A stretch of 37,009 nucleotides of DNA from Escherichia phage PGX1. Numbering within the stretch: position 1 is the first letter of the stretch; each line of letters opens with the position of its first letter. Under the pieces are notes generated by a model. It saw nothing but the letters and a program-made list of their open reading frames with translations. It searched no databases and was not told the origin of the DNA. The stretch lies in the sequence record OQ703770.1; one strand, 5' to 3'. The position numbers and the translations under genes are program-made. This document shows, one piece after another, positions 1,241 to 1,817 of this stretch.

Positions 1241-1300
1241 TAAACTCAAGGTCGCTCAATATGAGTGGCCTTTCATGATTATCACTTTACCTATGAAGGA
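1241..1300 (+). promoter_or_regulatory. R0.5: RNase III-type processing hairpin (R0.5-like)
   Basis: taaactcaaggtcgctc...gagtggcctttcatgattatcac motif. Confidence 0.5.
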
Positions 1301-1308
1301 AATACACA

Positions 1309-1593
1309 ATGCGCTTAAGTAAAGATACAGCGGTAGCACTACGGTCAGCAATTGAAGCCAAAGCTGCACATAACGCGGGAGGACTTGCGGATGTTGCACT
1401 GGCTTATGAGGAGAAAGGTCTAACGTTCCGTCGATTCATGTGGGACTGTTACCACGCAGTAGGCTTTAAAGAGACCACCAGAATCATCGCTGAGCATAAC
1501 ACGGTGACAGTGATTGGCGGGCATATAACAGATGTCAATGATTCGCACATCGAAACAATGCTCAAGGTTGCGCTTAAAGATTTGCAATACTAG
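1309..1593 (+). CDS. Hypothetical early protein, 94 aa, no T7 counterpart recognised
   Basis: Intact ORF between two RNase III-type hairpins, + strand, early region; SD aggaaa upstream. No motif recognised. Confidence 0.6.
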   Translation: MRLSKDTAVALRSAIEAKAAHNAGGLADVALAYEEKGLTFRRFMWDCYHAVGFKETTRIIAEHNTVTVIGGHITDVNDSHIETMLKVALKDLQY

Positions 1594-1652
1594 CGATAAA
1601 CTCAAGGTCGCTCCTAACGAGTGGCCTTTATGATTATCACTTTACAGGAGGA
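1594..1652 (+). promoter_or_regulatory. Second RNase III-type processing hairpin (near-duplicate of the R0.5-like element)
   Basis: tagcgataaactcaaggtcgctcctaacgagtggcctttatgattatcac, near-identical to 1241-1300. Confidence 0.5.
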
Positions 1653-1658
1653 TTAGCA

Positions 1659-1817
1659 ATGGCTATACTTATCACTGTCGCACTCTTTGCGGTCGCTGGC
1701 TGGTACTCTGAGTCACGCAAGGCTGCTCGCTATCACCGCAAGATGGTTAAACTCATGGAACACTTGGACGCAGAAGGGCGAGGCCGCGAGGCTATCGAAC
1801 TGGTGAAACACGCATGA
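1659..1817 (+). CDS. Small membrane protein (52 aa, one predicted N-terminal TM helix); gene 0.5-like by position
   Basis: SD aggagg, then ATG; protein MAILITVALFAVAGWYSESRKAARYHRK...; hydrophobic N-terminus. Confidence 0.55.
   Translation: MAILITVALFAVAGWYSESRKAARYHRKMVKLMEHLDAEGRGREAIELVKHA

Follow-up and report, generated by a model that had tools for sequence, protein, structure and literature searches.

R0.5-type RNase III hairpins around two accessory early genes of Escherichia phage PGX1

The genes of T7-like phages that enter the host first include those for several of the best-known counter-defence proteins, namely Ocr, the SAM lyase and the 0.7 kinase. The T7 proteins gp0.4, gp0.6 and gp2 are inhibitors of housekeeping functions, and other early proteins of T7 serve anti-defence. 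One of the processing sites of T7, R0.5, has been employed as an efficient, functional RNase III site (PMC3643576).

In this study we analysed the early region of Escherichia phage PGX1. The analysed window is the complete deposited record of the phage (37,009 bp). PGX1 shares about 91% identity with T7 and other Teseptimavirus genomes over 87-91% of the first 25 kb, and the reference lists that cite it give it as lytic, with enterotoxigenic E. coli as the host. The original prediction, made from this DNA alone, placed two ORFs lacking T7 counterparts between gene 0.4 and gene 0.6, each behind its own RNase III-type hairpin, and suggested that site and gene had been duplicated or inserted as a unit. 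Both ORFs (94 aa and 52 aa) and the two flanking genes were found where it had put them. The early region contains the following features:

255-534, plus strand: host sigma-70 early promoters, equivalents of A1-A3 (promoter-like sites at 255-283, 381-410 and 506-534)
647-704, plus strand: R0.3-type RNase III site (covariance model score 57.4 bits; fold z -3.4)
1082-1240, plus strand: gene 0.4 homologue, the T7-type left flank (phrog_7202, E 1.6e-33)
1234-1295, plus strand: R0.5-type RNase III hairpin, copy 1 (71.4 bits; predicted cut after 1276)
1309-1593, plus strand: 94-aa early protein, phrog_9817, GenBank WGL32399.1 (ORF, PHROG match and third-position substitution bias)
1590-1650, plus strand: R0.5-type RNase III hairpin, copy 2 (75.1 bits; predicted cut after 1631)
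1659-1817, plus strand: 52-aa protein, phrog_25811, in the slot of T7 gene 0.5 (ORF, PHROG match, hydropathy and model)
1814-1951, plus strand: gene 0.6A homologue (phrog_8393; 89.6% identical to T7 1636-1769)

The promoter region is collinear with T7 A1-A3, and the entire early region would be transcribed from these promoters. The R0.3-type site is the predicted 5' boundary of the ocr-0.4 mRNA, and gene 0.4 falls within the T7-collinear segment 600-1300. On the right flank, 0.6A has 45 aa in PGX1 and 53 aa in T7; the T7 segment 1770-2021, which holds the 0.6B extension and a spacer, is replaced by about 24 nt in PGX1 (1948-1971), and the short form of 0.6A is common to phage EG1 and the related genome L006. 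The 0.7 kinase gene has an apparent GTG start at 1971.

Further downstream, gene 1 (phage RNA polymerase) is missing from the record. An in-frame deletion with its junction at 3144/3145 corresponds to T7 3195-5756 (about 2.56 kb) and leaves a remnant of 29 codons in frame at 3121-3210 (MNTINNAK followed by ALPAKGNLNLQDILKSDFAFA), made up of the first 8 and the last 21 codons of gene 1. No microhomology was found at the junction, none of 50,697 phage genome records spans it, and the window contains no other ORF able to encode a phage RNA polymerase. To our knowledge, a T7-like phage without gene 1 cannot grow on a wild host, and the PGX1 record therefore either represents a defective variant or contains an error of assembly or editing. 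Its first base corresponds to about T7 position 180, and its last lies immediately before the expected right terminal repeat (positions 1-60 and 36940-37009), so that the deposited sequence has neither of the direct terminal repeats, which are 160 bp long in T7.

The two hairpin cassettes

The near-identity of the hairpins ahead of the two ORFs was borne out. The cassettes at 1236-1290 and 1592-1645 are identical at 49 of 55 positions and differ in the apical loop and in one 1-nt indel, an extra C at 1274 in copy 1. In 100 shuffled versions of the window the ungapped pattern of copy 2 never occurred. Both minimum-energy folds (-25.2 kcal/mol, z -4.8, for copy 1; -18.1 kcal/mol, z -2.4, for copy 2) are two-stem structures in which an asymmetric internal loop separates the lower stem from an upper stem of 10-11 bp, and both copies have the architecture by which we recognised R-sites (stems of about 10 bp above and about 8 bp below an asymmetric internal loop). 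In copy 2 the lower stem begins with the TAG stop codon of the 94-aa gene.

Both copies align to T7 R0.5. In blastn comparisons copy 2 is 94% identical to T7 1429-1482, and the T7 match runs through copy 1 into T7-like sequence of the kind that precedes gene 0.5. Judged by sequence, copy 2 is the orthologue of T7 R0.5. We aligned 17 R-sites from the PGX1 window and five related phages. Their consensus has 18 base pairs, 12 of which show compensatory changes, defined as at least one sequence with both sides altered and the pair retained; the 17 sites are paralogues and orthologues of each other, and the changes are not all independent events. A covariance model built from this alignment, with T7 sequence excluded, recovered all five early R-sites of T7 (852, 1427, 3100, 5847 and 6407), scoring R0.5 at 73.4 bits. 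No Rfam family matched window positions 1-6000 at E ≤ 1, and T7 R-sites do not appear to have an Rfam family. Homology, structure and covariation together bear out the RNase III-type identity that had been proposed for the cassettes. At the sensitivity used, R0.5-like sequences were present at 1,067 places in 794 records, with up to four per genome.

The covariance model also detected three unseeded RNase III-type hairpins elsewhere in PGX1 (10511-10569, 15258-15339 and 34113-34172), which we take as the equivalents of T7 R4.7, R6.5 and R18.5; it gave no match to an equivalent of R3.8 or R13.

The cut in T7 R0.5 presumably lies at nt 1468 (Dunn and Studier 1983). Alignment to R0.5 on this assumption leads us to predict RNase III cuts after 1276 and after 1631 in PGX1, and a separate mRNA of about 355 nt would thus carry the 94-aa gene. 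The extra C at 1274 sits on the 3' side of the internal loop of copy 1, two bases before the predicted cut, and is missing from the orthologous copies in EG1, ESh9 and AP10; it could alter the efficiency of cleavage or be a sequencing error. A sigma-70-like promoter at 1641-1669 (TTTACA, 17 nt, TATACT; 10 of 12 matches) reaches from the last bases of copy 2 into the beginning of the 52-aa ORF, a position analogous to that of the minor E. coli promoter B, which is annotated at T7 1514 inside gene 0.5.

Mosaic structure of the early region

We compared window positions 600-3300 with related genomes by blastn. T7 matches 600-1300, 1592-1645, 1814-1947 and then from 1972 on, with no match to 1301-1591 or 1646-1813. 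ESh9, a T3-like Shigella phage, gives an unbroken match to 1236-1820 (88.7%) and has the gene order SAM lyase, R-site, 94-aa gene, R-site, 52-aa gene, 0.6, 0.7. The match to EG1 covers 600-1646 at 92% and stops exactly at the end of copy 2, the match to L006 begins at 1592 and continues at 93.5%, and phiSG-JL2 matches 1639-1820 at 95.6%. Four breakpoints in this set of alignments lie at the edges of R-sites or slightly within them. No record among 50,697 covers at least 80% of window positions 1082-1960 in one place.

R-sites stand on both sides of the 94-aa gene in all eight loci of the T7, T3 and Kayfunavirus type that we examined (the PGX1 window, EG1, ESh9, AP10, Vec13, L006, L021 and L022). 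The Przondovirus-like loci of Oda and L017 have just one weak R-site, upstream of the gene, and no R-site flanks it in PGT2, L010, L011 or L013. The bracketing in the eight loci and the position of the breakpoints lend support to the idea that site and gene form a mobile unit, and from the patterns of repeats and breakpoints we infer that the hairpins may be the actual crossover points. By these matches, the block of two R-sites and two genes is of the T3-like-phage type and set in a T7-type backbone (ocr-0.4 on the left, 0.6A-0.7 on the right). The locus is a real but fairly ordinary accessory-gene module.

EG1 carries three tandem units: an R-site with the 94-aa gene, an R-site with gp0.45 and an R-site with a T7-type gene 0.5. 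Before the third R copy, which sits upstream of gene 0.5, 15 nt from the 3' end of the 94-aa gene (gatttgtaatactag) have been left behind at EG1 positions 2217-2232. The intact 94-aa gene lies 280 bp upstream of the remnant, behind another R copy and gp0.45. From its sequence and position, we read the remnant as the footprint of recombination or cassette insertion at R-sites.

The 94-aa and 52-aa proteins

The ATG of the 94-aa ORF is preceded by AAGGA at 9 nt. Substitutions in four relatives are dominated by the third codon position (8/3/21, 9/2/25, 10/8/31 and 11/9/28 at the three positions), indicating that the ORF is a gene under purifying selection. The protein matches the phrog_9817 profile over its full length (E 1.9e-39, residues 1-94 of 94 positions), as do 23 of 23 diverse relatives. 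Pfam, NCBIfam and PADLOC gave no meaningful match; among the Pfam families, neither Ocr (PF08684) nor ArdA (PF07275) matched, and the neighbouring ocr was found at 4.2e-62. The AlphaFold2 model is confident (mean pLDDT 91.5) and has five helices and a short hairpin at VIGG, with no sequence or fold match in the PDB and no DNA-binding fold detected. The statement that the protein contains no recognisable motif thus holds and extends to families and folds, and homology to a characterised early gene (for example of the 0.5/0.65 family), named in the original prediction as evidence against a new factor, was sought and not found.

The Kyte-Doolittle peak of 0.84 indicates a soluble protein. With a pI of 6.5 and a net charge of about -1 it is near neutral, and hence not a DNA mimic like Ocr or ArdA. 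Residues M1, W45, D78, I81, T83 and L85 are invariant or nearly so in the family, and the invariant residues are held in the motifs RFMWD and DxHIETxLK. On inspection, the conserved T39, F43, W45, I81 and L85 and the helix cap D78 seem mainly structural, so that no active site or interface can be named from them.

Several candidate relationships were rejected. A weak match to the N-terminal domain of T4 DNA ligase (E 0.019) was lost with a broader profile, had no structural support and is noise. The gp0.45 of the T3 group is a separate 66-aa gene that is also present in EG1, and gp0.45 of phiSG-JL2 gave no alignment to the 94-aa protein. In the accessory-gene screen of Silas et al. (bioRxiv 10.1101/2023.04.06.535777), orf24 from an ocr-containing region starts with MFKHEIYTDC and is unrelated, and the motif RFMWD did not occur in the supplementary files searched. 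Our literature searches returned no paper on the 94-aa or the 52-aa protein and no target.

By tblastn the 94-aa gene is present in 61 of 50,697 phage records, in all of them hypothetical or unannotated; none of the 60 records among the matches listed is T7, T3, K1F or another classical model phage. With 61 of 914 T7-related records encoding it, the gene is accessory. The phages that carry it are of the T7, T3, Kayfunavirus and Przondovirus types and infect many genera of Enterobacterales. An exhaustive profile search of 1.84 billion representatives yielded 18 clusters only, all of 81-113 aa, and a wider profile yielded 99 clusters of 72-150 aa without a Pfam domain; distant phages conserve the family to about 25-30% identity. 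A metagenome scan with the narrow alignment found three loci only, and plasmids contained no homologue.

The gene always lies within the early host-transcribed region, in a variable slot. It follows ocr and 0.4 in PGX1, EG1 and AP10, follows the SAM lyase gene in ESh9, directly precedes that gene in Oda, PGT2 and L017, and is the first gene, ahead of Ocr, in L006 and Vec13. Replacement of Ocr by the 94-aa protein when its gene comes first is ruled out, as Ocr comes next in both L006 and Vec13. Remote members (E 1e-7 to 1e-10) are encoded by the first or second gene of early operons together with ArdA, or with a SAM lyase and a pentapeptide protein, and two very remote members occur within small-gene arrays of large phages. 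Such a context agrees with an accessory early function directed at the host. With only 5-8 genes, the early region is short, so that closeness to anti-restriction genes says little and context cannot separate anti-defence from other takeover roles.

The 52-aa ORF has AGGAGG 7 nt upstream of its ATG, and its stop overlaps the start of 0.6A (ATGA at 1814-1817). It matches phrog_25811 over its full length (E 1.7e-38, residues 1-52 of 52), and the gene occurs in 45 phage records, mostly T3-like, at 86-100% identity. The single membrane helix that had been proposed for this protein is N-terminal: residues 1-15 reach a Kyte-Doolittle value of 2.33 and are followed by a basic segment. A single-sequence AlphaFold2 model of moderate confidence (pLDDT 71) has three helices, which suggests a membrane helix at the N-terminus followed by two short helices in the cytoplasm. 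No T7 protein resembles the product of either ORF, and to that extent the claim that the ORFs lack T7 counterparts stands; it does not extend to position, as the 52-aa ORF sits exactly where T7 has gene 0.5. Homology to T7 gp0.5 was rejected, since BLASTP aligned nothing at E ≤ 100; from these comparisons, the 52-aa ORF is best seen as having replaced gene 0.5 without being homologous to it. In phiSG-JL2, the RefSeq record contains an unannotated 52-aa ORF at 1950-2105 (94% identity), between gp0.45 and gp0.6, and other T3-like records probably do so too. In many phages the 94-aa and 52-aa genes are found independently of one another.

Proposed mechanism and comparison with known systems

We propose that PGX1 carries two accessory class I (early) genes in slots bounded by R0.5 hairpins and that the 94-aa protein blocks a host protein stoichiometrically, and we assign this reading as a whole a probability of about 0.55. 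That figure blends strong confidence in the account of the locus, which we consider very likely to be correct, with a much lower figure for the role of the protein. Host RNA polymerase would transcribe the early region from A1-A3, as extrapolated from T7, and RNase III would cut the 3' side of each internal loop, after 1276 and after 1631. Three mRNAs would be released, namely ocr-0.4, the monocistronic 94-aa mRNA of about 355 nt and 52aa-0.6A-0.7, each ending in a hairpin that would shield its 3' end. The hairpins, of about 55 nt, are repeated within and between genomes, with homology to other phages switching at them, and the 52-aa gene has displaced gene 0.5 in the T7-type backbone. In the first minutes of infection the 94-aa protein would bind and block a host protein in a stoichiometric manner, and the 52-aa protein would be an early peptide anchored in the inner membrane.

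An anti-defence or host-takeover role of the 94-aa protein is plausible. We infer that a component of host defence is the single most likely class of target, and, from the early position and patchy distribution of its gene and from neighbours such as Ocr, the SAM lyase and ArdA, we tentatively put forward the 94-aa protein as a possible anti-defence factor. It could instead be a takeover factor acting against housekeeping machinery (division, cytoskeleton, transcription or nucleases) and not against the immune system. The location of its gene directly after 0.4 and before 0.6A-0.7, its spread over phages that infect many genera of Enterobacterales, as expected of a conserved target, and a near-neutral charge incompatible with DNA mimicry would all agree with such a role. 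However, such a patchy distribution (61/914) and shifting slot are more typically seen in accessory genes of an arms race, and distant members are often encoded by the first or second gene, the position of anti-restriction genes. We judge inhibition of housekeeping machinery to be little less probable than an anti-defence role. Other functions, or none, take up the remainder of the probability.

A role of both ORFs in competition between phages or in regulation within the phage, such as superinfection exclusion or modulation of transcription or DNA entry, seems improbable. The predicted membrane anchor of the 52-aa protein resembles that of several exclusion proteins, and early expression would suit exclusion, but no DNA-binding fold was found in the 94-aa protein and the two genes occur independently in many phages. 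That the ORFs are dispensable passengers carried by R-site recombination, or unexpressed, is very improbable: they are missing from T7, T3 and most relatives and so are not essential, but the substitutions are consistent with purifying selection, distant phages have kept the 94-aa family, good ribosome-binding sites precede both ORFs, and translation of the 52-aa ORF is coupled to that of 0.6A.

We also considered a bolder hypothesis, that phrog_9817 is a new anti-defence family with a small helical fold not seen before, which moves among phages of the T7, T3, Kayfunavirus and Przondovirus types as a cassette bounded by RNase III sites, with R0.5-type hairpins as the recombination substrate. 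We regard it as unlikely. If true, these hairpins would serve to assemble variable counter-defence gene arrays at the leading end of the genome and would be functionally like the attC sites of integrons, but acting via homologous recombination.

The novelty of the locus is limited. The two ORFs are not new, since both are catalogued hypothetical proteins with PHROG families and are common to dozens of phages; the hairpins are a textbook element, and the PGX1 locus is no new type of system. The comparison is of use in showing how the early region is rebuilt, with short RNase III hairpins marking both the switches in homology and the slots for interchangeable genes. The boundaries of the slots are useful for annotation and for engineering, for example as safe insertion points in therapeutic T7-like phages. 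The 94-aa protein, which is conserved, well folded and recurrent beside counter-defence genes, is a reasonable candidate for a defence screen.

Overall, the PGX1 locus can be compared with four described systems. T7 R0.5 agrees with the PGX1 copies in both stems, in the internal loop and in its intergenic location on the early transcript, and copy 1 retains the T7 left flank and T7-like downstream sequence. In contrast to T7, PGX1 has two copies of the site and EG1 has three, and copy 1 differs by its apical loop of 3 nt and by the extra C; cleavage in PGX1 is predicted. T7 gene 0.5, like the 52-aa ORF, lies behind R0.5, has a stop that overlaps the 0.6A start and encodes a small membrane protein; the 47-aa T7 gp0.5 is hydrophobic over nearly all its length, whereas in the 52-aa protein a single N-terminal helix is followed by a charged tail of 35 residues. 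The T3-like block of ESh9 matches PGX1 1236-1820 in gene order and R-sites but is preceded by a SAM lyase gene, where PGX1 has a T7-type ocr and 0.4. Finally, Ocr, the SAM lyase and ArdA are small, early and accessory like the 94-aa protein, whose early expression is predicted, and are encoded next to it in several lineages, but they have no similarity to it in sequence or fold, and the 94-aa protein is not acidic.
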